DNA from: a virus
Virus record (IMG/VR): IMGVR_UViG_3300037461_000428
Coordinates: 1-64,000 of that record
DNA length: 64,000 nucleotides
Strand: one strand, 5' to 3'
Position 1 is the first letter of the stretch. Every line of letters begins with the position of its first letter. Shown piece by piece: positions 3,789 to 35,888 of this stretch. The notes under the pieces were generated by a model. The model did not search any database. It saw only the letters and a list, made by a program, of their open reading frames with translations, and had not been told where the DNA came from. The translations under genes and the position numbers were made by a program.

Positions 3789-3799
3789 TTTAATATCAT

Positions 3800-3847
3800 A
3801 CAACTATCAAAGGTTGCCATTAAAACGGCAACCTTTTGTTTAGTTGT
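3800..3847 (+). repeat. boundary hairpin of cassette array A (attC-like, also terminator-like)
   Basis: ACAACTA-TC-AAAGGTTGCC loop GGCAACCTTTT-GTT-TAGTTGT. Near-identical copies at 10429 and 23251. Confidence 0.8.
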
Positions 3848-3900
3848 AGTCAATGCTGCGCCTCTCTGAATTTATAGGCGCGGCCAAGAAAGGAATAACA

Positions 3901-4158
3901 ATGTCAACATGTCAATCGTGTGGTGGAATTATCGGTCGAGATTGTTTTAATCCTGAAGAGTGTGCTTGGATTACTCAGCAACAGGCCAACCAATGCGAGG
4001 CCGCGCAGTACAACGCGGAAGAGGCACAGCACAGCCTACAACAGCTAAAGGCTGAAATTGCCACTCTTGTCGATAAACTTGAGGCTATTTCGGCGGAGTA
4101 TTTATATCACCATAATTATGTAATTATTAATAAGCTGCGGCAACTATCAGCCGTTTAG
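3901..4158 (+). CDS. small cassette protein (Cys-rich N-terminus, coiled-coil-like)
   Basis: ATG after AAGAAAGGAATAACA. It ends ...LRQLSAV like the paralog at 12184-12528. The track ORF starts at 3853. Confidence 0.6.
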   Translation: MSTCQSCGGIIGRDCFNPEECAWITQQQANQCEAAQYNAEEAQHSLQQLKAEIATLVDKLEAISAEYLYHHNYVIINKLRQLSAV

Positions 4159-4168
4159 CAAACGTTGG
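4038..4168 (+). repeat. attC-like imperfect hairpin (E-element)
   Basis: 5' arm ACAAC-AGC-TAAAG-GCTG. 3' arm CAGCC-GTTTAGC-AAAC-GTTGG. Long loop that contains the ORF end. Confidence 0.6.
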
Positions 4169-4200
4169 TTGCAATGTTTGCACACAAGAAAGGTTAATAT

Positions 4201-4434
4201 ATGGCGGCATTTAACGAGTGGTGGGAAGAGGCGCGTGAAGCATTAGCAGGATTTACCGACAAGGGAGTCGCTCATTTTGCGTGGGATGCCGCCATTAAGA
4301 GCTTGGAAGGTGTGCAAACACAGACAACCAACTGCCAAAGTGCGCCATGTCCTGTCTGCTCAACAGCATTACGGCTTGATGCAAATTTTTGTATGCAATG
4401 CGGCAGACGAGTACAGGACGAGGCGCACGTTTAG
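4201..4434 (+). CDS. small cassette protein, zinc-ribbon-like
   Basis: 77-aa ORF with RBS AGAAAGG. CPVC...CMQC pairs. Confidence 0.65.
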   Translation: MAAFNEWWEEAREALAGFTDKGVAHFAWDAAIKSLEGVQTQTTNCQSAPCPVCSTALRLDANFCMQCGRRVQDEAHV

Positions 4435-4447
4435 CAAACGTTGGTGG
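4324..4447 (+). repeat. attC-like imperfect hairpin (E-element)
   Basis: ACAACCAAC-TGCC-AAAG-TGCGCC ... GGCGCAC-GTTTAGCAAAC-GTTGGTGG. Distal stem GTGCGCC/GGCGCAC. Confidence 0.75.
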
Positions 4448-4482
4448 CAATTACGCCGCCGACAATTTATAGGAGCGCGATA

Positions 4483-4722
4483 ATGAGCACAGACTGGAGT
4501 GCTGCTAAGTATCGAAGAGAAGCCAAGCGGGAACCTGCGCGTCTTAAATTTTGGTTGCAGTATCACGATGACATCGACAGGGCAAGTAGAGATGTTTGCG
4601 ATAACCCGCCTGGCTTTGACGAATACTGGAGGCAGATGTTTCCTAACGCAAAAAGATATCGCGCTCAGCAGATTATTGAGCGGCGGCGCAACAGCCACCA
4701 ACACGCAAAGGGAATGAAATAA
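4483..4722 (+). CDS. small basic cassette protein
   Basis: ATG after TATAGGAGCGCGATA. The track ORF starts further upstream at 4441. Confidence 0.6.
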   Translation: MSTDWSAAKYRREAKREPARLKFWLQYHDDIDRASRDVCDNPPGFDEYWRQMFPNAKRYRAQQIIERRRNSHQHAKGMK

Positions 4723-4854
4723 TGCTTTACACTATTGTAATTTTATCGGTCGTCTGTGCCGTTTTACTCGGCATAGTAATATGGGGCATTTTCTTTTTAT
4801 CGAAGTTTGGTAATTGGAGATAGCGCATTACTTCACCCTTTTGCGGAACGTTGT
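4698..4854 (+). repeat. attC-like imperfect hairpin (E-element) with a mini-ORF in the loop
   Basis: CCAAC-ACGC-AAAGGG ... CCCTTTT-GCG-GAAC-GTTGT. The middle box is CGC/GCG here but TGC/GCA in other copies, which is a compensatory change. Confidence 0.7.
4722..4823 (+). CDS. small hydrophobic peptide, 33 aa
   Basis: The ATG overlaps the upstream TAA. Translation MLYTIVILSVVCAVLLGIVIWGIFFLSKFGNWR. Lies inside the loop of hairpin 4698-4854. Confidence 0.45.
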   Translation: MLYTIVILSVVCAVLLGIVIWGIFFLSKFGNWR

Positions 4855-4886
4855 ACGCAATAATTTGCTTAAGAAAGGTTTGATAT

Positions 4887-5105
4887 ATGGCCGCAAAAAG
4901 AAGCATCACTTGTATTAAACGAGATGTATGTATCTACCACATTGGACATAAATTTCCTGCCTGTAGTGGTTGCGGCCATTACATTAAGGAAACGCAAATT
5001 ACAGCGCACAACTGCCAAAGTACGCCGTGTTGTTCAGAGTGTGGTAGCACTTGTGTTTTAGTAATGTGTAATACTTGTGGTCATCGACATTGTTATTTAA
5101 AATAG
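4887..5105 (+). CDS. small Cys-rich cassette protein
   Basis: 72-aa ORF with RBS AAGAAAGG. Multiple CxxC pairs. Confidence 0.65.
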   Translation: MAAKRSITCIKRDVCIYHIGHKFPACSGCGHYIKETQITAHNCQSTPCCSECGSTCVLVMCNTCGHRHCYLK

Positions 5106-5131
5106 CACGGCGCACGTTTAGCAACCGTTGT
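5004..5131 (+). repeat. attC-like imperfect hairpin (E-element)
   Basis: GCGCACAAC-TGCC-AAAG-TACGCCGTG ... CACGGCGCAC-GTTTAGCAAC-CGTTGT. Confidence 0.75.
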
Positions 5132-5308
5132 AAGAAATAAATTTTGCTCTTTTAAATTATAAAGGCGCGGCGAACATTGCACGATCTAATTAATCGTGCG
5201 GTCAAATGCTGGTTAATTGCACAGGATATTGCCAGAGGTGTGATCGTGAACTGTGTACGAAGATCACCCCGCGCCTAATTTATTGTAGCAAAATTTACAT
5301 CTTACAAC
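5127..5308 (+). repeat. non-coding cassette closed by a long terminal stem (R-type)
   Basis: GTTGTAAGAAATAAATTTTGCT pairs with AGCAAAATTTACATCTTACAAC (20 of 22 positions). Inner stem AAAGGCGCGG/CCGCGCCT. No ORF of 60 aa or more. Confidence 0.7.
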
Positions 5309-5362
5309 AGCTAAAGGAATGCAACGCCAAAATTGGCGTAGCATCCGTTTAGCAAACGTTGG
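5304..5362 (+). repeat. compact attC-like hairpin (E-element)
   Basis: ACAAC-AGC-TAAAG-GAATGC [ACGCC..GGCGT] GCATCC-GTTTAGCAAAC-GTTGG. No coding content. Confidence 0.75.
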
Positions 5363-5418
5363 TTGCAATAAACCACCATGAATATTATAGTTCGGCGCAC
5401 AATAAAGGAGGTTGCCGC

Positions 5419-5634
5419 ATGAAAATAAAACAGATTACCGATCAGCATCGCAGAGATTTTTCAGCTATTTATATTTGCGAACATTGTGGTGTCGAAGAAA
5501 AAGGTAGTGGATATGATGATGATAATTTTCACCGCAATGTTATTCCTAATAAAGTTTGCAAATCATGCGGCAAAAAAGCACCGGAAGATTATTGTCCTAT
5601 CGGCACAAAATATCCTGCATACGCAGTTGTATAA
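5419..5634 (+). CDS. small zinc-ribbon cassette protein
   Basis: ATG after AAAGGAGG. CEHC...CKSC pairs. The gene is bracketed by the inverted repeat TTCGGCGCACAA (5391) / TTGTATAATGCGCCGAA (5627). Confidence 0.65.
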   Translation: MKIKQITDQHRRDFSAIYICEHCGVEEKGSGYDDDNFHRNVIPNKVCKSCGKKAPEDYCPIGTKYPAYAVV

Positions 5635-5670
5635 TGCGCCGAATTAAAATTAAGGATTGGTGGTTTACAT

Positions 5671-5724
5671 CAACCAACACGCAAGTCACGCCATAGAAGC
5701 GGCGTGAACTTGCGGACACGTTGT
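5671..5724 (+). repeat. compact attC-like hairpin (E-element)
   Basis: CAACCAAC-ACGC-AAGTCACGCC loop GGCGTGAACTT-GCG-GACAC-GTTGT. Confidence 0.75.
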
Positions 5725-5772
5725 AGTCAATTCCGGTTTTGAAAACCTTTTATTATAGGAGCGCGCAAGAAA

Positions 5773-6045
5773 ATGAAATTATTAAACGATATCAACATTG
5801 TTGTGTCTAACAATTTTATTGAACTTATGGCATTAAAAGCTGAGTCGGATGGTATGCTTTCTGAAAATTATCAACGGATGGCATTATCACAAAGTATGGC
5901 GTATGCAGAAAAAGATTTTCTTTACGTAGCGGATAGAATGCGCGCTCTGAAATATGATGAAGCAAAACCGGAACAGCCTACAACAACGCAAGGCCAAAAC
6001 GCCCAAAGCGGCGCATCGGCCTTGCGTAAACGTTGTAAGAAATAA
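5773..6045 (+). CDS. small cassette protein
   Basis: 90-aa ORF, ATG after TATAGGAGCGCGCAAGAAA. Translation runs through the whole hairpin 5980-6036. Confidence 0.6.
   Translation: MKLLNDINIVVSNNFIELMALKAESDGMLSENYQRMALSQSMAYAEKDFLYVADRMRALKYDEAKPEQPTTTQGQNAQSGASALRKRCKK
5980..6036 (+). repeat. compact attC-like hairpin (E-element)
   Basis: ACAAC-AACGCAAGGCC loop GGCCTTGCGT-AAAC-GTTGT. Confidence 0.75.
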
Positions 6046-6171
6046 GACTTGCTTTTATGATTATAAGCGGCAAAGTTTCTTTGGGTGTAGATTTTAAAAA
6101 CCTCCGCACGGATGCTACTGAACGTGTGGTTTGCAACTTACATTATGGAGGCAAGTCTTACATCTTACAAC
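6032..6171 (+). repeat. non-coding cassette closed by a long terminal stem (R-type)
   Basis: GTTGTAAGAAATAAGACTTGC pairs with GCAAGTCTTACATCTTACAAC. The variable hexamer covaries relative to 5127 and 10472. Confidence 0.7.
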
Positions 6172-6265
6172 AAATAAAACCTGCAATGCCGCCTGTCCAC
6201 CTATTAGGACTGGATCGCTTTAAATGCGGCGTGCGGCGGCAAAGCAGGTGTTTATCGGACGTTGT
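6167..6265 (+). repeat. attC-like imperfect hairpin (E-element)
   Basis: ACAAC-AAATAAAA-CCTGCAATGCCGCC ... GGCGGCAAAGCAGG-TGTTTATCGGAC-GTTGT. Confidence 0.65.
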
Positions 6266-6307
6266 ACGCAATGCCACTTTAAATTAGATGCGGCGGGAGG
6301 TGTTAAA

Positions 6308-6580
6308 ATGGTTTTCTCATGTCCAAAGTGTCACGGTGCAATATATCCGTCAGATAATGTTGACTATTACGATTGCGAAGATTGTCATCACTTGTATCAT
6401 ATCGAATATTTAAAAGGTTTTGTTGCAGGTAAAATGTCCGCCGCAAAAGCGATGGAACAAAGTGGCACAGCGCACAACACGCAAAGTGACGGCATGTTTA
6501 ACTGTCCACCATTATGCCCTGTCTGTGGTCGATGTCATGTGCCATCAATAGAGTGTTTGCCATTACTGAGTATCAGTTAA
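6308..6580 (+). CDS. small Cys-rich cassette protein (two zinc-ribbon-like units)
   Basis: ATG after GGGAGGTGTTAAA. CPKC..CEDC and CPVCGRC motifs. The track ORF 6224 begins upstream, inside the preceding hairpin. Confidence 0.6.
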   Translation: MVFSCPKCHGAIYPSDNVDYYDCEDCHHLYHIEYLKGFVAGKMSAAKAMEQSGTAHNTQSDGMFNCPPLCPVCGRCHVPSIECLPLLSIS

Positions 6581-6608
6581 ACACGACCGCACGTTTGCGG
6601 AACGTTGT
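6470..6608 (+). repeat. attC-like imperfect hairpin (E-element)
   Basis: GCGCACAAC-ACGC-AAAG-TGACGG ... CCGCAC-GTTT-GCG-GAAC-GTTGT. Confidence 0.7.
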
Positions 6609-6634
6609 TTGCAATTGCAATTGAGGAAAAATAT

Positions 6635-6829
6635 ATGATAGTCGAGCTTGCACAAGAAGCGGCAGAGTTAATCAAAGTGTATCGTGATAAAAATATTGTA
6701 ATTGATAACTGGCAGTATAGGGTGCAAGCTCTATTAATTGCAGTAGCTCAATTGCAACAGACAAACAACTCGCAAAGGAATGCAATGGCGGTCGAGCCGA
6801 GTACGGTAAACGAGCAATCGTTTCATTGA
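6635..6829 (+). CDS. small cassette protein
   Basis: ATG after GAGGAAAAATAT. 64 aa. Confidence 0.55.
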   Translation: MIVELAQEAAELIKVYRDKNIVIDNWQYRVQALLIAVAQLQQTNNSQRNAMAVEPSTVNEQSFH

Positions 6830-6894
6830 GCAAGCTCAGTGGCACACGTAAGATCGTGTGGTGTCCGCCACTGCATCCATTTGCGGGACGTTGT
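6765..6894 (+). repeat. attC-like imperfect hairpin (E-element)
   Basis: ACAAC-TCGC-AAAG-GAATGCAATGGCGG ... CCGCCACTGCATCC-ATTT-GCG-GGAC-GTTGT. Confidence 0.75.
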
Positions 6895-6928
6895 ACGCAA
6901 TGCCACTTTAAATTGAAAGGAGTTTGCC

Positions 6929-7138
6929 ATGTTACAAGAGGTAATTGATTTTCTTGACCATCAATTTTCAATGAAAGACGCAACAATTTTATACCGTGAC
7001 CAATGGCAAACTCTGAAATCTGCGGTACTTGCGGCACAGCCAACCAACTGCCAAAGTGCGCCATGTTCTTTTTGCGGCAGAGCGGTTACGGTTCAATTTC
7101 CGATATGTTTTGAGTGCCGTGGTAAAATTCATGATTAA
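6929..7138 (+). CDS. small zinc-ribbon cassette protein
   Basis: 69-aa ORF, ATG after GAAAGGAGTTTGCC. CSFC...CFEC pairs. Confidence 0.65.
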   Translation: MLQEVIDFLDHQFSMKDATILYRDQWQTLKSAVLAAQPTNCQSAPCSFCGRAVTVQFPICFECRGKIHD

Positions 7139-7164
7139 CAAGGCGCACGTTTAGCGACCGTTGT
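7041..7164 (+). repeat. attC-like imperfect hairpin (E-element)
   Basis: CAACCAAC-TGCC-AAAG-TGCGCC ... GGCGCAC-GTTTAGCGAC-CGTTGT. Paralogous to 4324 and 5004. Confidence 0.75.
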
Positions 7165-7199
7165 ACGCAATTGTAAATTTTAAACAGGAGTATTATAAT

Positions 7200-7430
7200 A
7201 TGCTCGCTCAACCATGCCCTTTTTGTGGTAGCAGTATTAGAATCTTTGACAATGTAGGAGGCCAGTGCGTTACTCATAAACACGATACCTGCTGTTTGAG
7301 TCACATGGTATTTAGATTGCGGTCATGGAATGAGCGAGCAAACGCTGTGGAAGAAAATTTACAACAGCGCACAACACAGCAAGGCACACAAGCCGCAAAA
7401 GAAAAAGACGCGGCCAGCGGCCATTGCTGA
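7200..7430 (+). CDS. small cassette protein (CPFC motif)
   Basis: ATG after CAGGAGTATTATAAT. In this gene the conserved GCGCACAAC arm is read as R-T-T, not as A-H-N. Confidence 0.6.
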   Translation: MLAQPCPFCGSSIRIFDNVGGQCVTHKHDTCCLSHMVFRLRSWNERANAVEENLQQRTTQQGTQAAKEKDAASGHC

Positions 7431-7438
7431 AACGTTGT
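7367..7438 (+). repeat. attC-like imperfect hairpin (E-element)
   Basis: GCGCACAAC-A-CAGCAAGGC ... GGCCATTGCTG-AAAC-GTTGT. Confidence 0.65.
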
Positions 7439-7471
7439 ACGCAACCGGCAATGAAACTATAGGAGCGCAAT

Positions 7472-7597
7472 ATGTCGCAGATCGAAAAGAATACGCAGTC
7501 TATTGAGGCACTTGCAGAAGAAATACGGTTGTTACGTGAACAAGTTATTGCGCTCAAAGAGCAATTGGAATCATTGCCAGCAGCGCACAACAAATAA
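7472..7597 (+). CDS. small coiled-coil-like cassette protein, 41 aa
   Basis: ATG after TATAGGAGCGCAAT. Translation MSQIEKNTQSIEALAEEIRLLREQVIALKEQLESLPAAHNK. Below the track cutoff. Confidence 0.5.
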   Translation: MSQIEKNTQSIEALAEEIRLLREQVIALKEQLESLPAAHNK

Positions 7598-7725
7598 AGG
7601 TTAAAATTGTGGCCGATACCAAAAAACGCAGTTCAAGCTTCTCTGATCTCAAAAGAAGTATGGCGGTTTTACATAAAGTTTCCGCTGCAAAGCGGCCACA
7701 ACTTCAACCATTTATCGCACGTTGT
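7583..7725 (+). repeat. attC-like imperfect hairpin (E-element)
   Basis: GCGCACAAC-AAA-TAAAGGTTAAAATTGTGGCC ... GGCCACAACTTCAACCATTTA-TCGCAC-GTTGT. Confidence 0.7.
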
Positions 7726-7810
7726 ACGCAATGCTGCCCTTAAAACATTATTAGAGTTTGCGGCGGCCAAGAACGCGGCATCGTGCCGCGAAGAGAAAGG
7801 CAAAAACAAA

Positions 7811-8833
7811 ATGCAAATCACAAGAAACCTTATCGTACCAACTGGCAATATACTCGTGGTATCTGGAGCAAAAGGCAATTTGGAAATGCTTTCTCTTGCT
7901 GATTATGGACAGAGCGTAAATCTAAACCAACACAAAGCAGTAGAAAACGGATTGCCGCTTTTGCCACTAACTGAAAAGTGGGTGGTTACAGTTTCAACAC
8001 AATACGGTTGTTCAATGTGCTGTGAATTTTGCGATGTGCCGAAAGTTGGAGCGGGAAAAAACGCTACATTTCACGATCTTTGTGGTCAAATTCTTACGGC
8101 GTTGACATTACCAAATGTTCCACAGCAGACCAAAAGATTAAATATTCATTTTGCGCGAATGGGGGAACCATCTTGGAACCCTGCTGTTCTTGATTGCGGG
8201 AAATGGATAATGGAACATCTTGGCGATACCTACAATCCGCATCCTGTTGTTTCTACAATGATGCCGCGTAAAAACGAATGGTTGAAAACATTTATTCATA
8301 ATTGGATGAGAATGAAAAACAGGGTTTATCGTGGGAATGCAGGCTTGCAGCTTTCAATAAATTCAACAGATGAAGAAGAAAGAAAAAGAATGTTTTCTGG
8401 CAATGCTTGTACGCTTGAGGAAATATCAGAAATCATGCGTGGCATTATCCCTGTCGGAAGAAAAATAACTCTCAATTTTGCAGTAGCGGGATACACTGTA
8501 GATTGTGATAAACTTGCAAGGCTTTTTTCTCCTGAATTGTTTATTGTAAAGCTAACACCGATGCACAAAACTGACAAAGCAATCCAGAACGGAATAAAAA
8601 CGGAAGGTGATTATACAACACCAGAACCGTATTTAGAACTTGAAACAAGATTACAAAAAGCTGGATTTGATACTCTTGTTTTTATAGCAAGCGATGATGA
8701 AGATAAAGGAAGAATAACTTGCGGTAATGCAATTCTTTCTGGAACATTACCAGAATGCAAATATCAAGAGACGCATCCCTGCGCCGAGAGGCCGCCGCAA
8801 GACACTGTAGAAACGGGCAGCACATGCGTATAA
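7811..8833 (+). CDS. radical SAM enzyme, RlmN/Cfr-like
   Basis: VSTQYGCSMCCEFCDV contains CxxxCxxC. MGEPSWNP, LQLSINSTDEEERKRMF and the C-terminal GRITCGNAILSG parallel RlmN/Cfr blocks. The start was moved to ATG 7811 because the track start 7607 runs through a hairpin. Confidence 0.8.
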   Translation: MQITRNLIVPTGNILVVSGAKGNLEMLSLADYGQSVNLNQHKAVENGLPLLPLTEKWVVTVSTQYGCSMCCEFCDVPKVGAGKNATFHDLCGQILTALTLPNVPQQTKRLNIHFARMGEPSWNPAVLDCGKWIMEHLGDTYNPHPVVSTMMPRKNEWLKTFIHNWMRMKNRVYRGNAGLQLSINSTDEEERKRMFSGNACTLEEISEIMRGIIPVGRKITLNFAVAGYTVDCDKLARLFSPELFIVKLTPMHKTDKAIQNGIKTEGDYTTPEPYLELETRLQKAGFDTLVFIASDDEDKGRITCGNAILSGTLPECKYQETHPCAERPPQDTVETGSTCV

Positions 8834-8912
8834 CAGCCGCAGTATGCAAAGCGGATTACACTATGGAGTTTATTAATTAATAGCCGCTCAGCACACATGC
8901 GGCATACGTTGT
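8832..8912 (+). repeat. probable E-element (arms less regular)
   Basis: AAC-AGCCGCAGTATGC-AAAGCGG ... CCGCT..CATGCGGCATAC-GTTGT. The pairing register is ambiguous. Confidence 0.35.
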
Positions 8913-8943
8913 AAGAAATAAATTTTGCTCTTTGTAATTGTAG
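8908..8943 (+). repeat. orphan 5' arm of an R-type cassette
   Basis: GTTGTAAGAAATAAATTTTGCTCTTTGTAATTGTAG is near-identical to 5127-5162, but no matching ...TTACATCTTACAAC partner follows. Confidence 0.5.
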
Positions 8944-9029
8944 TTTGCATACAGCGGGTTCCGGTAGACCAACCTACGGCACTCCAAAAAAGTAACATTA
9001 GTAACGGTCGCTAAGCGGAAACAGCTACC

Positions 9030-9156
9030 GACAGCCAAAAGGATGAAATTTGCCCTAATTGTGGCTGTGTTGCTATCAGTATTGGTAATAACAATTTTCT
9101 GTGCGGTTGTGAGCCTGATCGTTAGGCAAATTATCAGCCATTTAGCGATACGTTGT
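9030..9156 (+). repeat. probable E-element with a mini-ORF in the loop
   Basis: GACAGCC-AAAAGG-ATGAAATTTGCC ... GGCAAATTATCAGCC-ATTTAGC-GATAC-GTTGT. The core on the 5' side is degenerate. Confidence 0.45.
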
Positions 9157-9195
9157 GCGCAATTAAAATTTTTCTGGAGTTATAATGGTAACTAA
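9043..9195 (+). CDS. small hydrophobic peptide, 50 aa
   Basis: ATG after CCAAAAGG. Translation MKFALIVAVLLSVLVITIFCAVVSLIVRQ... It overlaps the next gene's start. Confidence 0.4.
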   Translation: MKFALIVAVLLSVLVITIFCAVVSLIVRQIISHLAIRCAQLKFFWSYNGN

Positions 9196-9373
9196 AAAAG
9201 AAATCGGTGATATGGTTTTTCAGATTATTCGTGAAAAATGTGTCAGCGATATGGCGGCATTTCGTGCATCTGAGGACGTTGCTATTTACATTGTGGATAA
9301 AATTTTACCAGCTGCTCTTTCTGCCAATGAAGATATAATCTTTAATAATTGGAAAGATGCAGAAAACAATTAG
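9185..9373 (+). CDS. small protein at the right edge of array A (KDAENN family)
   Basis: 62-aa ORF, ATG after CTGGAGTTATA. Its 3' end and the downstream 20 nt are repeated at 24480-24575. Confidence 0.65.
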   Translation: MVTKKEIGDMVFQIIREKCVSDMAAFRASEDVAIYIVDKILPAALSANEDIIFNNWKDAENN

Positions 9374-9404
9374 ACAATAAACGAATCGCGGAAGAGGAAT
9401 TAAT

Positions 9405-10118
9405 ATGGTTAAAGTAAATACAGACTTTGAAAAACTACAATTAAAAGCAAGAGATGCTCTCTATTTTATAGATAGTCATCCAGCTATTAATGGTAGCTTT
9501 TTTGGTGTACAAACTAGTTTGTGGTTTAGTATCCAAACAGTTTGTAAAAGAGGCCATAGTGAATATTCTATCAAAGACATGACTATTTATTATAGTAAAG
9601 AAAACTATAAAAAATTTAAAAAAGAATTCGATAAAGAAATAGCAGAAGATCAGGATTATTTCAAAAAGTGTCCAACATTAGTAAGTATACAAATGCCTTA
9701 TCAAAAAGTATTTGGAGAACCTTGGATATTTGACCATATAGAATATTGGGGCGAACTTACATTGCATATTTATAAAGGTAAGAAAGCTAAAGAGAAGTTT
9801 AACTTTCTAGACTGGGATAATTGGGAAGGACCGCACGCAGGAGGAAGAACTTACGAAGAAATGATTATTAACCTCGCTAAGAAAATGAAAAAAGAATGTG
9901 GTAATTTTGATTATTATAGTTTTCTGACTCCAGAAGAAATTAAGAATCATAAAGAGGAAGAGGTATTCTTCTGGAAAAAAGTTCCAGATACAAAAGAACA
10001 TAAAAACTATTCTACTATTATACCTAACAAAAAGTATATTAAAGTAAGCGACGCCGAAAAGAATCTTCGATGGCAAGAGTGGATGAAGATTAAGAAGAAT
10101 ATTTCTTATAATAATTAA
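9405..10118 (+). CDS. hypothetical protein
   Basis: 237-aa AT-rich ORF with GGAAGAGGAATTAAT before the ATG. No motif recognised. Confidence 0.7.
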   Translation: MVKVNTDFEKLQLKARDALYFIDSHPAINGSFFGVQTSLWFSIQTVCKRGHSEYSIKDMTIYYSKENYKKFKKEFDKEIAEDQDYFKKCPTLVSIQMPYQKVFGEPWIFDHIEYWGELTLHIYKGKKAKEKFNFLDWDNWEGPHAGGRTYEEMIINLAKKMKKECGNFDYYSFLTPEEIKNHKEEEVFFWKKVPDTKEHKNYSTIIPNKKYIKVSDAEKNLRWQEWMKIKKNISYNN

Positions 10119-10141
10119 CAGGAGAAATAAATGAAAGAATA

Positions 10142-10402
10142 TTGGATATGTATAGTTGTCCAGTAGAAGGAAGTAAATTACCAGAAGGTTCTGATAGTGC
10201 ACCTAGAAACGGCGCACAAACAGGAATGTACAGATTAGGATTAGACGATAAATATGATATATCGTCTGGGTGGGGACTTACCAAAGACCAAGTAAATAGA
10301 ATTTTAAATATTTGGAGAGAGCCCAGTTGTCAAGGTATATTTAAAAATAGACAAGGCGCAATTAAAAGACCAAAACCTAAAGTTGTAAAGAAAAAGAAAT
10401 AA
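10142..10402 (+). CDS. hypothetical protein
   Basis: 86-aa ORF with a basic C-terminus. The RBS is not convincing. Confidence 0.5.
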   Translation: MDMYSCPVEGSKLPEGSDSAPRNGAQTGMYRLGLDDKYDISSGWGLTKDQVNRILNIWREPSCQGIFKNRQGAIKRPKPKVVKKKK

Positions 10403-10428
10403 TGTTATTATTTAACAATTAACTGCAT

Positions 10429-10476
10429 ACAACTATCAAAGATTGCCATTAAAACGGCAACCTTTTGTTTAGTTGT
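10429..10476 (+). repeat. boundary hairpin of cassette array B
   Basis: ACAACTATCAAAGATTGCC attaaaac GGCAACCTTTTGTTTAGTTGT. A copy of 3800-3847. Confidence 0.8.
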
Positions 10477-10644
10477 AAGAAATAAACTTGGCTTTTGTCT
10501 TATAGAAAATGGTGCGAAAAATGCGCTTAATTAGTTGCTTAAAACAGCCCTCGGATTATTCGCTATTATCATGGAACCCGACCAAGCTGCCGGTTCGAGC
10601 GAGCCATTTTTTACATTATGGAAGCCAAGTTTACATCTTACAAC
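10472..10644 (+). repeat. non-coding cassette closed by a long terminal stem (R-type)
   Basis: GTTGTAAGAAATAAACTTGGC pairs with GCCAAGTTTACATCTTACAAC. The interior is unrelated to the other R copies. Confidence 0.7.
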
Positions 10645-10767
10645 AAATGCGTTATGCAATATCCCGCTCCGGCATGGTTGCCATAGCACTACTAGAAATG
10701 GTTCGCAAGGTGTAAACATGGATTCGAGTCCCATGGGCGGGATATAGCATAACACATCAACCGTTGT
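10640..10767 (+). repeat. attC-like hairpin whose loop holds a tRNA-like element
   Basis: ACAAC-AAA-TGC-GTTATGC ... GCATAAC-ACATCAAC-CGTTGT. Confidence 0.65.
10663..10742 (+). ncRNA. tRNA-like element (acceptor plus T-arm, no canonical anticodon arm)
   Basis: Acceptor CCCGCTC/GGGCGGG. T-arm ATGGA-TTCGAGT-CCCAT. GGCA-tggt-TGCC hairpin. The central arm has a 13-nt loop. Confidence 0.4.
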
Positions 10768-10795
10768 ACAAAATTAAAATTTTTCTGGAGGTTAT

Positions 10796-11029
10796 ATGGC
10801 AAAAACTTATCTGTGCCCATATTCTAAAACGGAGAGCATACGATGTAATTTACAAACACCATGTATAGAGTGTAAGGTATTTTTGCCGGACACTATGGAT
10901 AAAATTTTAACTTCGTACAACAAACAAAGTATGCCATTTTGTGCTTTACCGGATCATTGCGATATGCAAAGCGCAGTTTATTTATGTAATTGCGAATCGA
11001 TTTGTAAGCATAAACGGCATACTTTGTAA
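10796..11029 (+). CDS. small Cys-rich cassette protein
   Basis: 77-aa ORF, ATG after CTGGAGGTTAT. Confidence 0.6.
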   Translation: MAKTYLCPYSKTESIRCNLQTPCIECKVFLPDTMDKILTSYNKQSMPFCALPDHCDMQSAVYLCNCESICKHKRHTL

Positions 11030-11037
11030 AACGTTAG
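10914..11037 (+). repeat. attC-like imperfect hairpin (E-element)
   Basis: TCGTACAAC-AAA-CAAAGTATGCC ... GGCATACTTTG-TAAAAC-GTTAG. The distal stem is 11 perfect bp. Confidence 0.7.
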
Positions 11038-11078
11038 ATGCAATGTTCGCCTTAAAACAGTATAGGAGTTTTTCGCGC

Positions 11079-11327
11079 ATGAAACTATCTCGTTGTATTT
11101 GCGGTCGTGAAGCAAAAATATGGGCTGGGCAGTATGGGGATGAATTGCGTACAATTGAGTGTAATTGCGGCATCTCAACGTTGGCATGGTGGAACGGGAA
11201 TAAATGTGCCGCAAATTGGAATACAATTCAGCGCGAAAAAAGAAAAGTTGAAGCGGCGAACACAGCATCTAACAACAGCGTTACGCAAGCCGCAGAAACA
11301 AAAAGCACGGCCAGCGCAACACTGTAA
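11079..11327 (+). CDS. small cassette protein (CICG...CNCG)
   Basis: ATG after TATAGGAGTTTTTCGCGC. The track ORF 10941 begins inside the previous cassette. Confidence 0.6.
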   Translation: MKLSRCICGREAKIWAGQYGDELRTIECNCGISTLAWWNGNKCAANWNTIQREKRKVEAANTASNNSVTQAAETKSTASATL

Positions 11328-11334
11328 ACGTTGT
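11272..11334 (+). repeat. compact attC-like hairpin (E-element)
   Basis: ACAAC-AGCGTTACGC ... GCGCAACACTG-TAAAC-GTTGT (9 of 11 positions pair). Confidence 0.55.
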
Positions 11335-11374
11335 GCGCAATGGGCGCGGAGAGCGTTTTTATAGGAGCTGCCAA

Positions 11375-11560
11375 ATGAAAGTATCTGCTATTGAGCAAGT
11401 AGTGAAATATTATCAGTCAATCGTTGACTCGTTGCCTATTGGTGGTTTTGGCGTGAAGGTGTTACACGATGCTTTGGTGGAATTGGCCGCTCTGAAGGCA
11501 GCGGAGTCCGCGCCCACAGACGCACAACAAACCAATGGCGGCGCAAAGCCTAAATGCTGA
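11375..11560 (+). CDS. small cassette protein
   Basis: ATG after TATAGGAGCTGCCAA. 61 aa. Confidence 0.55.
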   Translation: MKVSAIEQVVKYYQSIVDSLPIGGFGVKVLHDALVELAALKAAESAPTDAQQTNGGAKPKC

Positions 11561-11591
11561 GTATAGCACTTCGCCATTGGTCTGACGTTGT
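11520..11591 (+). repeat. compact attC-like hairpin (E-element)
   Basis: ACGCACAAC-AAA-CCAATGGCG ... CGCCATTGG-TCTGAC-GTTGT. The distal stem is 9 perfect bp. Confidence 0.75.
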
Positions 11592-11623
11592 ACGCAATAT
11601 TTTGCTTAAGAAAGGTTTGATAT

Positions 11624-11851
11624 ATGGCTGCTAATACAGGAATACGATTGTTGCCAAAAAATCTTTCTGATTCTGATCGTGCTTTATGGCTTGCAGGTTA
11701 CGAAGCGGCCATTAACGCTATGGAAGCGCAAAATACAGTGCACAACATCAGCGTTATGCCATGTGTCGGTTGTCTGAACAAAATCACAACTTGTCGGCTT
11801 GGTTATCAGATCGAAGATCAGCCTTGTAACCAGCGCACGGCACAACACTGA
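11624..11851 (+). CDS. small cassette protein
   Basis: 75-aa ORF. Its 5' UTR (TTGCTTAAGAAAGGTTTGATAT) is the same as that of the gene at 4887. Confidence 0.6.
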   Translation: MAANTGIRLLPKNLSDSDRALWLAGYEAAINAMEAQNTVHNISVMPCVGCLNKITTCRLGYQIEDQPCNQRTAQH

Positions 11852-11860
11852 AAACGTTGT
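11738..11860 (+). repeat. attC-like imperfect hairpin (E-element)
   Basis: GTGCACAAC-ATCAG-CGTTATGCC ... GGCACAACA-CTG-AAAAC-GTTGT. Confidence 0.6.
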
Positions 11861-11887
11861 ATACAATATTTAACAATCGAGGTTAAT

Positions 11888-12136
11888 ATGTCAAATTTGA
11901 AACGATATACAGAGAGTTATTGTTGTGGTAAGTATGATGGCATGGAAGAGGATTCTCTCGCTGGCGAATGGGTCAAATTTGACGACATTAAGGAGTTGTT
12001 AAATACCGTGCACAACCGCCAAAGGGATGAAATATTGCATCTTATTATGGATGATTCGTTTGCTATTTCATTTCAGTCGTTTAGTCAGTATCGGTCGGCA
12101 TTGGTTAAAGAGATCGCAAAACTATCAGCCATTTAG
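11888..12136 (+). CDS. small cassette protein
   Basis: 82-aa ORF, ATG after CGAGGTTAAT. It ends ...KLSAI, encoded by the shared AACTATCAGCCATTTAG module. Confidence 0.6.
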   Translation: MSNLKRYTESYCCGKYDGMEEDSLAGEWVKFDDIKELLNTVHNRQRDEILHLIMDDSFAISFQSFSQYRSALVKEIAKLSAI

Positions 12137-12146
12137 CAAACGTTGT
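12008..12146 (+). repeat. E-element arms present but distal stems do not match
   Basis: 5' arm GTGCACAAC-CGCC-AAAG-GGATG. 3' arm CAGCC-ATTTAGCAAAC-GTTGT. This looks like a recombinant or decayed site. Confidence 0.35.
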
Positions 12147-12183
12147 AGTCCATAATTGTGCAACCATATCATAGGAGGTGCGT

Positions 12184-12528
12184 ATGTATATAGGCGGTAA
12201 TGAAATTTCTAAACAGGTGGATTTCTTCGAGCTAGAAGCTAAGAACCGTGTTACAGCTGGTGATTTTGATACGGCGCAATGGTGCATTCAAGCTGCAAAT
12301 GCCGCGTTTCAGGCGTATGTATGTATTTGTAAACGTGAACGCGCCGAAGAAAAACAGCCTACAACAGCTCAAGCATGTCAGCCGGAGGAAGCGGGCCACA
12401 CAAACAGCCAACAACTAAAATCCGAAATTGCCGCTCTTGTAGCGGAATGTAGTGCTAATGCCATCAATAGTGGTAATAATAAGTATCAGTGGTTAATTGA
12501 TAGACTGCGGCAACTATCAGCCGTTTAG
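12184..12528 (+). CDS. small cassette protein, paralog of 3901-4158
   Basis: ATG after ATAGGAGGTGCGT. It shares QQLK.EIA.LV and the terminal LRQLSAV with 3901-4158. Confidence 0.6.
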   Translation: MYIGGNEISKQVDFFELEAKNRVTAGDFDTAQWCIQAANAAFQAYVCICKRERAEEKQPTTAQACQPEEAGHTNSQQLKSEIAALVAECSANAINSGNNKYQWLIDRLRQLSAV

Positions 12529-12539
12529 CGGTACGTTAT
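12408..12539 (+). repeat. probable E-element
   Basis: CCAACAAC-TAAAA-TCCG ... CAGCC-GTTTAGC-GGTAC-GTTAT. A homolog of 4038-4168. Confidence 0.45.
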
Positions 12540-12566
12540 GCAAAAGTTTTAACGCTGGAGATTTAT

Positions 12567-12821
12567 ATGTCAACGCTCGATGATCTTTGGAACGACACTA
12601 TGTACGCATACCAAAATGGTGAGCTGTCGCGGGAACAGGTCGCGTTGAAATTTGCGGAGGCGTTAAAACCTTCGCACAACAAACCTATGCCAAAATTGCC
12701 GACACTGGCGGAATGTCAAACAGAGATACAGTCGCAGATATGGGGTGGCGGCTTTAAGGGAACATCTTCAAATATAACTGAGATTGTTTACAATTTTATA
12801 TGTCGGCAACTGTCGGCATAG
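12567..12821 (+). CDS. small cassette protein
   Basis: 84-aa ORF, ATG after CTGGAGATTTAT. Confidence 0.6.
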   Translation: MSTLDDLWNDTMYAYQNGELSREQVALKFAEALKPSHNKPMPKLPTLAECQTEIQSQIWGGGFKGTSSNITEIVYNFICRQLSA

Positions 12822-12833
12822 GTCGGACATTGT
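12672..12833 (+). repeat. attC-like imperfect hairpin (last element of array B)
   Basis: TCGCACAAC-AAA-CCTATGCC-AAAA-TTGCCGACA ... TGTCGGCAA-C-TGTC-GGCATAGG-TCGGAC-ATTGT. Confidence 0.7.
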
Positions 12834-12876
12834 AAGCAATTTGTCTAAACTTTTAATGCTATACTATAACAATACT

Positions 12877-23389: not shown

Positions 23390-23683
23390 ATGAAAAAAGT
23401 TATTAGCTCAGAGGAGCTAATAGCCGCCAACCCTTACTTTAAAGGTGGAGCGAAACACGTTCCACCAACTCACAAAGGGATGCAATGCGGGGGGTATGCG
23501 TTAGCGAGCGGTATGTGGCGTAACGTAACTATATCGCTTAGCGAAGCGAGCATTCATCGTCAAGATGAGCCTCCCACACAGCACCCATTTACGGACACGT
23601 TGTACGCAAGCTGGCCCTTAAAACAGCAGTATAGGAGCGCATTATGGGATTTGCATATAGATGTGATAAGTGTCACCAGTTAA
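23390..23683 (+). CDS. cassette protein
   Basis: 97-aa ORF, ATG after GAAAGGAATTTGCC. It reads through hairpin 23462-23603 and overlaps the next start. Confidence 0.5.
   Translation: MKKVISSEELIAANPYFKGGAKHVPPTHKGMQCGGYALASGMWRNVTISLSEASIHRQDEPPTQHPFTDTLYASWPLKQQYRSALWDLHIDVISVTS
23462..23603 (+). repeat. attC-like imperfect hairpin (E-element)
   Basis: CCACCAAC-TCAC-AAAGGG ... CCC-ATTT-ACG-GACAC-GTTGT. Confidence 0.55.
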
Positions 23684-23850
23684 CAGAGAGCCAAATTGTG
23701 CTTTGTCCATCGTGCGCTCCGAACATTAAGGAAGCGAGCCAACCAGTGCACAATTGCCAAAATGATGCAATTACTCGTGTTGAAAATAAATGTAATGAAA
23801 TATTGGAACGATTACCGCATCGGAATAGTGGTGAACTAGGCCCAGGTTAA
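23644..23850 (+). CDS. small zinc-ribbon cassette protein
   Basis: 68-aa ORF, ATG after TATAGGAGCGCATT. CDKC...CPSC pairs. Confidence 0.6.
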   Translation: MGFAYRCDKCHQLTESQIVLCPSCAPNIKEASQPVHNCQNDAITRVENKCNEILERLPHRNSGELGPG

Positions 23851-23867
23851 GCAATAGCACACGTTTA
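23746..23867 (+). repeat. E-element with a truncated 3' arm
   Basis: 5' arm GTGCACAAT-TGCC-AAAA. The 3' arm AGCACACGTTTA stops abruptly at an AT-rich palindrome. Confidence 0.4.
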
Positions 23868-23940
23868 TTAATAGTATTTATACTAGTTAATTAATAGCAC
23901 CTTATCCCAACTGGCCGAGGAAAAGGTGCTTAAAAACCTT

Positions 23941-24030
23941 CGCACAACAAACAAAGTACTCCATTATGTCCCACATAACGGGTTAGCAAAAATAGTAAGC
24001 GTACCGTATCCAGCGTGCGGTAAACGTTAT
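23941..24030 (+). repeat. probable E-element
   Basis: CGCACAAC-AAAC-AAAG-TACTCC ... GCGTGCGG-TAAAC-GTTAT. The distal stems do not match well. Confidence 0.4.
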
Positions 24031-24230
24031 ACAAAAATGCTGTGCTTTTAGAATTATGGGCACGGCTGGAGGTAACATGGAGTTTATCATTCTTCGAGGT
24101 AGATTTTCGGGACGCTTTTTTGGTGTCCAGTTGGTTTGTGGTAAGTATACGCTTCAGTATGCTTTTCGCAAATTTGGAGTATACAACTCTTGTACTCACA
24201 CATGGTGGCCGTGCTAAATTTTAGTTACAG
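24026..24230 (+). repeat. R-type non-coding cassette, divergent copy
   Basis: GTTATACAAAAATGCTGTGCTTTTAGAATTATGGGCACGGC ... GGCCGTGCTAAATTTTAGTTACAG. The GCTTTTAnnATTAT block is shared with the other R copies. Confidence 0.5.
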
Positions 24231-24396
24231 TACCATATTATTGGAGTCAATGATATGGTATATCGAACTGTCAAAAAAAATAGGACAGTTCACAATTACT
24301 AATTTTAGTAGATATTAGTAGATATTAGTAATATCACAAATTTTATAGACGCGCATTGTACTAAATTTACGGGATATTTAAAAATAGGAGAATACT

Positions 24397-24558
24397 ATGT
24401 CATCCTTTACATTTGAAGAATGGTGGGAAATAGGCAAGAAACTTGGCGGCAAAAAAATTACTGCACAGGCCGCATGGGAGGCCGCTCTTTCTGCCAATGA
24501 GGATAAAATTTTTGAAGAAGGATATAATTTGGGTTTTAAAGATGCAGAAAACAATTAG
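24397..24558 (+). CDS. small protein at the right edge of array C (KDAENN family)
   Basis: ATG after AATAGGAGAATACT. 53 aa. The segment ...ALSANEDKIF...KDAENN and the downstream sequence match 9185-9373. Confidence 0.6.
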   Translation: MSSFTFEEWWEIGKKLGGKKITAQAAWEAALSANEDKIFEEGYNLGFKDAENN

Positions 24559-24635
24559 ACAATAAACAAATCACAAAATACAAAAGAATAATTATCATAG
24601 AGGAATACACTCAAATATTCATATTCCAAATTAAT

Positions 24636-24710
24636 GGTATCTTATCTCAATTGGTTGAGGAAATTGTTTTAGAGACAATTTAGTGTAGGTTCGAATCCTA
24701 TCTGTAGAGG
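24636..24710 (+). pseudogene. tRNA-derived fragment (Leu-UAG-like anticodon arm, T-arm, no acceptor pairing)
   Basis: D-arm TCTC-AATTGGTT-GAGG, ATTGT-TTTAGAG-ACAAT and GTAGG-TTCGAAT-CCTAT are present. The 5' and 3' ends cannot pair. A related D-arm string lies at 23903-23922. Confidence 0.3.
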
Positions 24711-24958
24711 CACTTTTCAATACTCTTTTTATGTGGTGCGATGTGCTAATATAGTTAGGTGTAATAAATGTAAAGCTGAATTTCCGCTAATAAGTATGTG
24801 TTGACACAGCACACGTTTAGTGGCACGTTTTATGTAATACGGGGGAGTGCAAATAGTTATCGACATCGCGATTTAGTTCGGTAGCTTCAACGAGTAATGT
24901 CGTTGCTCTCCCGCGTATAGCATACAATGTCGCCATTTAAGTGTACATATTTTTCATT

Positions 24959-34179: not shown

Positions 34180-34306
34180 TAACGGGTGTAGACAAGAGTT
34201 ACTTCACTGATAATGAAAAGATATGGGTTCGAGTCCCATACCCTTCGTAAGAAGGGACTAGCTCAATGGCTAGAGCGTTAAAATACTCTTATCGTTTTTA
34301 TCGTTA
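34180..34306 (+). ncRNA. Y-RNA-like RNA, copy 5, with a tRNA-like module (YrlA-type)
   Basis: TAACG-GGTGTAG-ACAAGA-GTTACTTC ... ACTCTTATC-GTTTTTATC-GTTA. The interior has ATGGG-TTCGAGT-CCCAT and GCTCAATGGCTAGAGC. Confidence 0.6.
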
Positions 34307-34337: not shown

Positions 34338-35888
34338 ATGAAACAAAATACAAAAGCAACTGGAAATGGAAAAACTGTTCTTACTATTGGTAAAACTTTA
34401 AATAAGGCCGGCGAAGAAGCCTTTGAGCTTAAGGATCGCGAGAAGCTTGTAACAGGCATTTTAACATGCCTAGTCAATGAGCCTACGTATTATGGAGATA
34501 CTACTCCAGATGTCATTAAAGTAGCCCGTAAGCTTATTCAGACAGATCCTGAGTTTGTCGCAAAGGCCGCGTGCTATGCAAGAAACGTTTTTCATATGAG
34601 AAGCATATCTCATGTACTTGCTGCAGAAGTAGCAAAAGGAGCTAAGGGAAGCAATGTTGTCCGTAAGATGACTCGTAAAATAATTGAGCGTGCCGATGAT
34701 ATTACCAATATCCTTTCCTACCACTTTAAGACTTGGGGAAAGAGAAAAAAGGATCCTGCTCTTACTGTAACCCAGTCAGACAATCCTGTATCAAGAGCTC
34801 TCCGTAGAGGAATAGCTGATGTATTCCCAAGATTCGACGAGTATTCTCTTGCTAAGTATAAAGGCGACGACAACGACGTCAAGCTTCGTGACGCCCTATT
34901 ACTTTCCAGACCTAAGCCTACTAATGAAGCACAAACCCAGCTTTGGAAGAAATTAATCGAAGGTAAGCTGGCTACGCCAGAGACCAGAGAAACTATTCTT
35001 TCCGAGAAAGGTCAGTCTAAGGAAACTTGGGAGAAGATCATTGATGGTAAAGCAGGATATATGATGCTTCTAAGAAACCTTAAGAATATTCTGGAAAATA
35101 AGGTTAGTCAGTCTCATCTTGATAAGGTATGTACTATTATTAGTGACACTGATCAGGTAAAGAAGTCAAAACAGTTCCCATTTAGATTCTTCTCTGCTTA
35201 TCGTGAAGTTGAAAATTTGGGATCTTTGAGATCTCAGCAAGTTTTAGATGCTCTTGAAAATGCGCTTAATACGTCATTTGAAAATCTTCCAAAGTTGGCC
35301 GGAACCACTGCAATTATTGTGGATCAATCTGGTAGTATGGATAGTCCTCTTAGCGAAAAAAGTAAAATCAATCTAAGGGACGTTGGCAATCTTCTTGCCG
35401 CAGCGGCATTAAAGTTCTGCGATAGAGCAGTTACTATTCCATTTGGATATACTGCAAAAGTTATATCTTTATCTTCTCGTAATAATATCTTTGCGAATAT
35501 GACAAAGATGGAGAATTCAGGAGTTGGTCATTCGACTTATCTTATTTCAGCATTTGAAGAAATTGATAAGCTGGATGAGAAAATTGATCGCATCCTTATT
35601 TTCTCTGATATGCAGGCATATGGAGAAGTAGCGACCATATTTGGATATTTCAGACGTCCATCGACTCCGTTATATAATAGCTGTCAGGCTTGGTTTGAAG
35701 CCTATAAACAAAAAGTGCCAGCGTTATGGTTACATTCATTTGATTTAGCTGGCCATAGTACTACTAAAGTAGCCGGAAAAGGTGTAAATCTTATCTCTGG
35801 TTGGTCAGAAAAAGTATTTGATTATGTTTCTCAGGTAGAAGAAGGCAGAGCCGGTCTAATCAAAGCAATTGAAGAATACGTAATTTAA
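34338..35888 (+). CDS. rsr: Ro60/TROVE-domain protein with C-terminal vWA domain (Rsr-like)
   Basis: 516 aa, ATG after ATAGGAGGGTGTT. The N-terminal part resembles TROVE (LVNEPTYYGD...FVAKAACYARN..HMR). IIVDQSGSM is the MIDAS motif. It sits immediately after the Y-RNA-like array. Confidence 0.75.
   Translation: MKQNTKATGNGKTVLTIGKTLNKAGEEAFELKDREKLVTGILTCLVNEPTYYGDTTPDVIKVARKLIQTDPEFVAKAACYARNVFHMRSISHVLAAEVAKGAKGSNVVRKMTRKIIERADDITNILSYHFKTWGKRKKDPALTVTQSDNPVSRALRRGIADVFPRFDEYSLAKYKGDDNDVKLRDALLLSRPKPTNEAQTQLWKKLIEGKLATPETRETILSEKGQSKETWEKIIDGKAGYMMLLRNLKNILENKVSQSHLDKVCTIISDTDQVKKSKQFPFRFFSAYREVENLGSLRSQQVLDALENALNTSFENLPKLAGTTAIIVDQSGSMDSPLSEKSKINLRDVGNLLAAAALKFCDRAVTIPFGYTAKVISLSSRNNIFANMTKMENSGVGHSTYLISAFEEIDKLDEKIDRILIFSDMQAYGEVATIFGYFRRPSTPLYNSCQAWFEAYKQKVPALWLHSFDLAGHSTTKVAGKGVNLISGWSEKVFDYVSQVEEGRAGLIKAIEEYVI

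Follow-up and report, generated by a model that had tools for sequence, protein, structure and literature searches.

Integrons are the textbook case of gene capture through hairpins of single-stranded DNA (ssDNA), an ability which their integrase is thought to owe to one inserted helix. In the canonical form the integrase IntI carries this extra domain (the I2 helix), and the attC sites are imperfect hairpins with extrahelical bases, bounded by RYYYAAC and GTTRRRY and recombinogenic on the bottom strand; where two or more attC sites cluster away from any integron integrase, one speaks of a CALIN. Xer recombination also takes place on folded ssDNA in the CTX phage, and Acinetobacter plasmids harbour pdif modules, in which genes lie between inverted Xer sites; both systems use host XerCD and conserved 28-bp dif-like sites, those of pdif having the layout XerC-6-XerD and alternating in orientation. 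Among virulent phages without integron integrase, attC-type sites with cassettes, often methyltransferases, have been found with the standard attC model, some clusters having no more than two sites (Qi et al. 2023, PMC9892861). In T4-type phages, the PeSL elements are repeated hairpin motifs between small accessory genes, consisting of a terminator and an early promoter, for which a modular shuffling via homologous or unidentified recombination has been proposed (Arbiol 2010, PMC2839356; Comeau 2014, PMC4122927). We have analysed a stretch of 64,000 nucleotides of a viral genome (IMG/VR record IMGVR_UViG_3300037461_000428, positions 1 to 64,000; hereafter the window), in which an earlier note had described non-coding R-type units with unrelated interiors, each closed by a long and covarying terminal stem, viewing them either as cassettes carrying structured RNAs or as empty or decayed cassettes.

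The results obtained indicate that the R-type units probably are short cassettes, devoid of open reading frames (ORFs) or decayed, within a phage-borne integron-like array, and that their stem more likely belongs to an ssDNA recombination site than to an RNA. We give an even chance to the broader proposal that the window holds part of a distinct, undescribed class of integron-like gene capture, residing mainly in uncultivated large phages and in at least one bacterial lineage, which would combine an XerA-like enzyme without the domain thought to be needed for integron hairpin recombination with split sites, each cassette being wrapped in its own 21-bp covarying stem. A full-text search of the literature returned no description of such a system, which is not proof of its absence.

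The R-type units within a cassette array

The three R-type units lie in a series of consecutive units which share one plan: a 5′ arm (GTTG-N3-N2-AA-T followed by 9-10 free bases), a cargo and a 3′ arm (the complement of the free bases followed by A-CA-N2-N3-CAAC). After the 3′ arm comes an attC-like imperfect hairpin which occupies the 41-147 nt from CAAC up to the next GTTG, the latter being preceded by C or A, as in ..AAAC. The cargo of most units is a single small gene that has a ribosome-binding site, and the encoded proteins are often Cys-rich; when ten cassette proteins were compared with PHROGs, two families were matched, both of unknown function. The features under study are the following:

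3790-12840, plus strand: whole cassette array, ~24 consecutive units (~9 kb); both arms found in 19, the 5′ arm alone in the other five
3790-3848, plus strand: first array site, a small attC-like hairpin ending in TTTA followed by GTTG; copy 1 of a 59-nt direct repeat
5127-5308, plus strand: R-type unit 1, arms GTTGTAAGAAATAAATTTTGC and GCAAAATTTACATCTTACAAC; 140-nt interior with a nested stem and no convincing gene
5309-5357, plus strand: attC-like hairpin of R-type unit 1; on the bottom strand, R-box helix, 3-nt bulge, 6 bp, one extrahelical base and stem
6032-6171, plus strand: R-type unit 2, arms ...AAGACTTGC and GCAAGTCTT...; 98-nt unstructured interior; ORF 6057-6287
6172-6260, plus strand: attC-like hairpin of R-type unit 2
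8908-9151, plus strand: orphan unit, its 5′ arm equal to the arm of unit 1 over 27 nt; ends in an attC-like site
10419-10477, plus strand: copy 2 of the 59-nt repeat, 93% identical to copy 1; directly before R-type unit 3
10472-10644, plus strand: R-type unit 3, arms ...AAACTTGGC and GCCAAGTTT...; 131-nt unstructured interior; ORF 10509-10715
10645-10762, plus strand: attC-like hairpin of R-type unit 3, holding the inverted repeat I11 (10647-10667 / 10737-10757)
23598-24840, plus strand: second small cluster, its cassette boundaries degenerate; 5′ arms start at 23598, 24026 and 24826

The array stands out clearly from its surroundings. Pairs of the type GTTR...YAAC with at least 16 of 21 complementary bases number 16, all comprised in 3843-12680, and the remaining 51 kb of the window contain none; shuffling of the array region yields 0.035 such pairs on average, and a further three units pair when a 1-nt offset is allowed. 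The 5′ motif ACGTTGTACGCAAT is found 16 times with up to two mismatches, always on the plus strand, against an expectation of 0.21.

Exact searches place GTTGTAAGAAATAA at four sites (5127, 6032, 8908 and 10472) and TTACATCTTACAAC at three (5295, 6158 and 10631), which confirms the positions reported earlier and delimits three R-type pairs spanning 182, 140 and 173 nt. The inner heptamers differ between copies and yet are complementary within each (ATTTTGC/GCAAAAT, GACTTGC/GCAAGTC and ACTTGGC/GCCAAGT), just as had been described, and the recurrent mismatch that had been pointed out is indeed there, AA facing CA identically in every copy. A divergent fourth copy had also been proposed at 24026-24230; this is not confirmed, as the stretch has a cassette-type 5′ end (aaac directly before GTTATACAAAAATG) and no complementary 3′ arm, the best partner matching at 14 of 21 positions, in the wrong place and without CAAC. 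The orphan unit at 8908-9151 likewise has no matching 3′ arm and contains a 28-codon hydrophobic ORF with a ribosome-binding site, as read from the sequence; it is probably a recombinant cassette which carries an R-type 5′ arm.

The terminal stem itself is thus real, whereas its specificity for the R-type is not: the earlier note had missed that nearly all neighbouring, mostly protein-coding units share the same stem architecture. In fact, R-type is one allele of box plus spacer, and in other loci (L109, L248, L305, L312 and L341) R-type arms wrap units of 245-1213 nt. The one in L109, the sole R-type unit of the five loci read in detail, comprises a clear small gene with a ribosome-binding site.

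Two other cassettes of the array deserve description. The unit 6890-7159 is a chimera, its first 29 nt being equal to the cassette at 6261 and its 3′ arm and hairpin start equal to those of the cassette at 4164 (90% over 41 nt). Homologues of the cassette gene 5419-5634 (phrog_14808) occur in Streptococcus phages and T4-like Yersinia phages (~70-75% DNA identity), tightly packed among other genes, so that the same gene appears, as judged by gene packing, to exist in and outside cassettes.

Covariation and mobility in related loci

The same arrays are present in more than 40 viral or metagenomic contigs, the array-bearing viral ones being L109, L183, L153, L178, L244 (a 168-kb contig), L248 (a 254-kb contig) and L257. 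Upon re-screening the pattern hits for arm pairs, 39 of the 68 metagenome hits proved to carry them; when viral contigs were scanned with the 14-mers GTTGTAAGAAATAA and ACGTTGTACGCAAT, the matches listed were for the most part single hits due to chance, and they became informative only after this re-screen. In 185,579 bacterial species genomes the two-arm pattern, which is narrow, retrieved unrelated tandem repeats only.

Arm pairing is maintained while the arm sequences vary. Considering 48 units from 8 contigs, 93.5% of the arm cells are paired as compared to 55.7% upon shuffling, a count which is partly circular since the units were chosen for complementarity, the independent test being the chance control given above (16 pairs versus 0.035); all four Watson-Crick pair types are represented at arm positions 13-21 of these units. 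A direct illustration is provided by the window cassette at 5720 and its homologue in L109 (49% protein identity), which have the same box and different but mutually complementary variable arms, their similarity beginning at CGTTG. Four cassettes are common to the loci L285 and L293 (92-99.7% identity) although their neighbours differ; in most cases the blocks of identity start or stop within the conserved CGTTG junction motif, the base before GTTG travelling with the upstream partner. Cassettes of the window itself have relatives at ~74% DNA identity in other arrays.

Judging from the sharing between L285 and L293 and from the arms of the 5720/L109 pair, the cassettes of the related loci are discrete and recently mobile units and their arm pairing is under selection. 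The integron hallmark of discrete mobile units, for which the crossover would lie between G and TT, is thus found in the related loci rather than in the window's own cassettes, and the term cassette used by the earlier note was well chosen, given that the units sit in an integron-like array and that those of related contigs move as blocks bounded by CGTTG.

Methyltransferases of three kinds recur in the related loci (L355 3061-3736, L356 5861-7257, L248 3874-4893 and L316 2225-3391); these genes lie inside mapped cassettes in L355 and L356, and in L248 and L316 the gene alone was identified.

Predicted folding of the recombination sites

In most of the 18 sites that were folded, the predicted bottom-strand structure consists of a 7-8-bp box helix, a 3-nt bulge, 6 bp, one extrahelical base and a variable stem, the bottom strand being predicted to be more stable than the top strand in 15. 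Across the sites YAAC and GTTR are invariant, and the spacer geometry differs from that of canonical attC. The conserved mismatches of the arms, A.A and A.C on the top strand, correspond to T.T and to a G.T wobble on the bottom strand, which fits folded bottom-strand DNA rather than a sense-strand RNA.

Joining the 3′ arm of a cassette, its hairpin and its own 5′ arm, as would occur in a circle, gives on the bottom strand one continuous predicted hairpin of 87-164 nt (seven cassettes folded) with energies of −32 to −43 kcal/mol, whereas the same junctions with the 5′ arm of the neighbour yield −18 to −29 kcal/mol. This circle hairpin is again more stable on the bottom strand, and the GTTG/CAAC box is located mid-hairpin beside the 3-nt bulge.

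In the mechanism that we propose, the covarying terminal stem would represent a single recombination site which the crossover point divides into two halves. On excision as a single-stranded circle, the cassette would unite its 3′ arm and hairpin with its own 5′ arm in one hairpin, and a dedicated XerA-like tyrosine recombinase would cut and rejoin at GTTG; the extra 14 bp may keep the box double-stranded in the circle and, within the array, may bring both cassette ends together. Under the broader proposal made above, the R-type units would be minimal cargo-free mobile units, and thus natural substrates for defining how much of the site capture and excision require.

A tyrosine recombinase linked to the arrays

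In L341, the stop codon of a gene for a 304-amino-acid tyrosine recombinase abuts the first cassette of the array, which has R-type arms. Eight homologues (41-61% identity) were looked up, and all of them are followed by a typical-arm array within ~45 nt on the same strand; the linkage is therefore observed in nine of nine loci, several of these in clearly phage contexts, with the co-oriented recombinase gene ending 0-45 nt before the first GTTG. The junction between recombinase and array reads A followed by GTTG, and both copies of the 59-nt repeat of the window read likewise.

These array-linked recombinases (274-304 amino acids) are XerA/XerC-like. The protein compared falls below every NCBIfam cut-off, its score against TIGR02249 being 171.6 bits (cut-off 265), in two stretches. 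In the alignment with VchIntIA (2a3v), chain residues 170-244 are covered by query residues 168-200, which leaves ~42 residues missing at the integron-specific helix; the alignment with XerA (4a8e) is one continuous stretch. GenBank phages hold no close relative of the enzyme, the best being ~32% identical, and a 42%-identical relative in Alkaliphilus has no array.

A Nitrospiraceae genome (L359 4001-8100) encodes a 44%-identical recombinase followed by an array with near-identical 5′ arms (GTTATCTGCTCATTGCG...), among which only one 3′ arm was matched. The array may represent a bacterial branch of the system, which accordingly is not confined to phages; the idea of a phage-only system was discarded upon finding, via the recombinase, this array with different arms.

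Mobile-element and defence genes accompany some of these loci. Immediately upstream of its recombinase and array, L341 (3112-11676) carries Type I-E Cascade genes (Cse1, Cas7-like) together with a TnpB gene; this contig could come from a bacterium or else from a phage or plasmid with CRISPR-Cas. Complete IS607-type elements (MerR-resolvase TnpA plus TnpB) are found ~2 kb from the array ends in L305 (5536-7345) and L293 (272-2323), and in L183 (3877-4332, minus strand) an IS200-type Y1 transposase gene is located inside a typical-arm cassette, upstream of the cassette's own small membrane-protein gene.

Interiors and coding potential of the R-type units

The interiors of the three units (98-140 nt) are unrelated to one another and have no match among ~360 fetched loci. 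They had been described as rich in local hairpins, which holds for unit 1, whose interior (5148-5287) folds better than its shuffles (z = −3.6 on the top strand and −4.2 on the bottom), and does not for units 2 and 3, which fold no better than shuffles (z from −0.8 to +0.8). Comparison of the units with Rfam 15, which includes Y RNA, gave no match at the gathering score; with the threshold relaxed to E ≤ 1, a single chance-level match emerged, to the hairpin after unit 1 (5304-5357; 13.8 bits versus a gathering score of 72). The folding and Rfam search of the interiors, which the earlier note had put forward as a check, thus assign no family and find one of the three structured; a Y-RNA identity of the units was likewise rejected, as the Rfam searches gave no match.

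In respect to coding potential, no ribosome-binding site can be seen for any candidate ORF. ORF 6057 matches itself alone in 5.8 billion proteins, ORF 10509 has zero matches in the protein search and is not called as a gene, and neither of the two ORFs of unit 1 has ever been called as one. As had been anticipated, the three candidate ORFs share just a stretch encoded by the stem, namely YILQQ from the 3′ arm.

We read the R-type units as ORF-less or decayed because their interiors are unique, Rfam offers no match, their ORFs lack homologues and ribosome-binding sites, and one interior only is structured. Of the two options that had been left side by side, empty or decayed cassettes is therefore the better supported. 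Annotation of the R-type stems as RNA genes should be avoided.

Weighing the alternative explanations

A number of observations weigh against this interpretation. Unit 1 has both a significantly structured interior and a Cys-rich 48-codon ORF, for which a product is possible. The recombinase family is absent from the 64-kb window and from the two flanking stretches that were fetched, and no integrase figures among the 25 listed of the 57 families matched there; any activity on this array would depend on an enzyme whose gene lies elsewhere or in the host. Elements of the IS200/IS605/IS607 types occur in or near four arrays, which makes another class of enzyme possible. As for the strand, A.C and G.T mismatches are about equally frequent in the freely variable part of the arms, with no strand bias, and the choice of the bottom strand rests on the conserved positions and on predicted energies. 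To these is added the partial circularity of the covariation counts.

A function at the RNA level may be envisaged in two ways, both of which we consider very unlikely. According to one, the R-type units would be genes for structured non-coding RNAs of ~140-180 nt with a long terminal stem, possibly Y-RNA-like partners of the phage Ro60 protein, which would account for the compensatory changes in the stem and for the one well-folded interior (z about −4), and would suit a phage encoding a TROVE/Ro60 protein and RNA-repair enzymes. However, the same stem closes gene-carrying cassettes in the window and, with gene-sized cargo, in other contigs; the interiors resemble neither each other nor anything fetched, and two of the three are unstructured; Rfam has no match to the units even at E ≤ 1, the sole chance-level match being to the hairpin after unit 1; and the conserved mismatches favour the antisense strand. 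On these grounds the option of cassettes carrying structured RNAs, which the earlier note had kept, finds no backing. According to the other, the stems would act in mRNA processing or insulation, as RNase III stems round each gene, or as PeSL-like terminator/promoter modules shuffled by homologous recombination. Genes all on one strand with a hairpin between each and the next would agree with this, and PeSL modules do shuffle small genes in T4-type phages, but promoter-like sites (26 versus 23.8 expected from shuffling) and terminator-like sites (9 versus 9.0) are not in excess, which also speaks against RNA genes and led to the rejection of a promoter/terminator reading, as counts are at background. 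Moreover, coding sequence extends over several of the 3′ arms (4999-5012 and 6459-6478 among them), the sense-strand stem has up to three mismatches where the antisense has one mismatch plus wobbles, and the arrays are linked to a site-specific recombinase of their own.

Two further possibilities are improbable to a slightly lesser degree. The units could be non-autonomous, hairpin-guided single-strand transposons, of the IS200/IS605 "peel and paste" or PATE/REPIN-like type, cut by a Y1 HUH transposase after AAC on both sides (between AAAC and GTTG at the start and after CAAC at the end). Indeed AAC precedes both junctions, an IS200-type TnpA gene lies within a typical-arm cassette in L183, and TnpB or IS607 elements neighbour the arrays of L341, L305 and L293. 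Yet among the more than 40 array loci a complete Y1 transposase gene is present only once and a short remnant once more, the L183 gene looks inserted upstream of the small gene proper to that cassette, and IS200/IS605 ends are local subterminal hairpins and not cassette-wide arms, whereas the tyrosine recombinase is linked to the arrays in all nine cases; an IS200 transposase as the enzyme of the arrays was considered and downgraded, its linkage being inconsistent. Alternatively, the R-type units could encode products, either micro-proteins, such as that of the Cys-rich 48-codon ORF 5206-5352, whose CxxxCxxC pattern resembles other Cys-rich cassette proteins, or promoters for neighbouring cassettes, in view of TTGTAA-17-TATGAT on the plus strand of unit 2 and TTGTAA-17-CATAAT on the minus strand of units 2 and 3. 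Against these stand the missing ribosome-binding sites, the fact that the ORFs are uncalled as genes or singletons, and the origin of the promoter-like hexamers, which derive from the arm itself and are not enriched. Short cassettes, gene-less or decayed and bounded by the halves of a recombination site, remain the explanation that we favour for the R-type units.

The phage genome and other features of the window

The window is a piece of a large phage genome of low G+C content (~0.30), with all genes on the plus strand, five tRNA genes and genes for recombination, helicase and RNA-repair functions; over much of the array the G+C content rises to 0.40-0.44. No close relatives of this phage were found among deposited phages, nor in IMG/VR with the UDG protein as query. 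Exact-protein look-ups identified the same phage in sample SRR12684589, its public Logan assembly being in three contigs (137.8 kb, 6.65 kb and 68.5 kb) with breaks at window positions ~3843 and ~10448, that is, at both copies of the 59-nt repeat; the 6.65-kb segment between the copies could be a variable block. These look-ups gave the same phage only. Arrays of this kind break short-read assemblies, as in this public assembly, and are invisible to integrase-based integron finders.

Elsewhere in the window, a weak tRNA-like element (34182-34246; Rfam tRNA 31 bits, ARAGORN tRNA-Ile) lies 90 nt upstream of the TROVE/Ro60 gene (34338-35888), in a phage that also encodes RNA ligase, RlaP and cREC_REC genes. 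Element and gene could form a bacterial-type Y RNA (YrlA-like) module; the fold of the region is not significant. At 44647-47466, a 939-amino-acid AAA ATPase is apparently split by an intein-like insert with a homing-endonuclease-like middle, as seen by eye.

Comparison with known systems

The array shares features with several described systems. With IS200/IS605 elements, PATEs and REPINs it has in common a single-strand, hairpin-dependent mobility (here proposed) and short non-coding units bounded by inverted repeats, but there is no consistent linkage to a Y1 transposase, and its arms vary between units instead of being near-identical copies. Likewise, the CTX and pdif systems resemble it in relying on a Xer-type tyrosine recombinase and an ssDNA hairpin (here predicted), and pdif also in its gene modules, whereas in the present arrays half of the site is free to vary, the hairpin sites are long and the enzyme is encoded by the element.

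The nearest phage analogue is PeSL, which also places hairpin repeats between small accessory genes of large phages; in contrast to it, the window array shows no promoter or terminator signal, its arms are cassette-specific and covarying, and the arrays have a dedicated recombinase linked. The attC clusters of virulent phages (PMC9892861) and the present arrays have methyltransferase cassettes in common, and the cluster of phage TJE1, the one published example that was checked, has no paired arms. If the proposed mechanism holds, a defined route would exist for the swapping of small accessory genes in large phages, probably including anti-defence and methylase genes.

The closest likeness is to integrons and CALINs. 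As in these, the window has an array of small same-strand cassettes, mostly with a single gene, each terminated by an imperfect hairpin that ...YAAC and GTTR... enclose, with a bottom strand predicted to fold better and to present bulged bases, and with a cassette start complementary to its own ...AAC box; in the related loci, cassettes move as units and a tyrosine recombinase heads the array. In terms of a CALIN, the window comprises ~24 attC-like sites and no integrase found in 64 kb, the likeness being judged by boxes and predicted folds rather than by the standard attC model. A distinct scenario results from the enzyme, which in the nine related loci is XerA/XerC-like without the integron-integrase insert and is co-oriented with and abuts the array, unlike the divergent integrase with attI and promoter of an integron. 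Should this assignment be correct, a Xer-type enzyme without that helix would represent a second solution to hairpin recombination, independent or ancestral, with consequences for our view of the origin of integrons from Xer recombinases. The sites differ as well, with a one-sided 3-nt bulge between box and hairpin where the usual attC has a 5-nt spacer pair, and with a start-end complementarity of 21 bp with a fixed mismatch as compared to 6-7 bp, which sets the crossover box in the middle of the site here and not at its base as in integrons.

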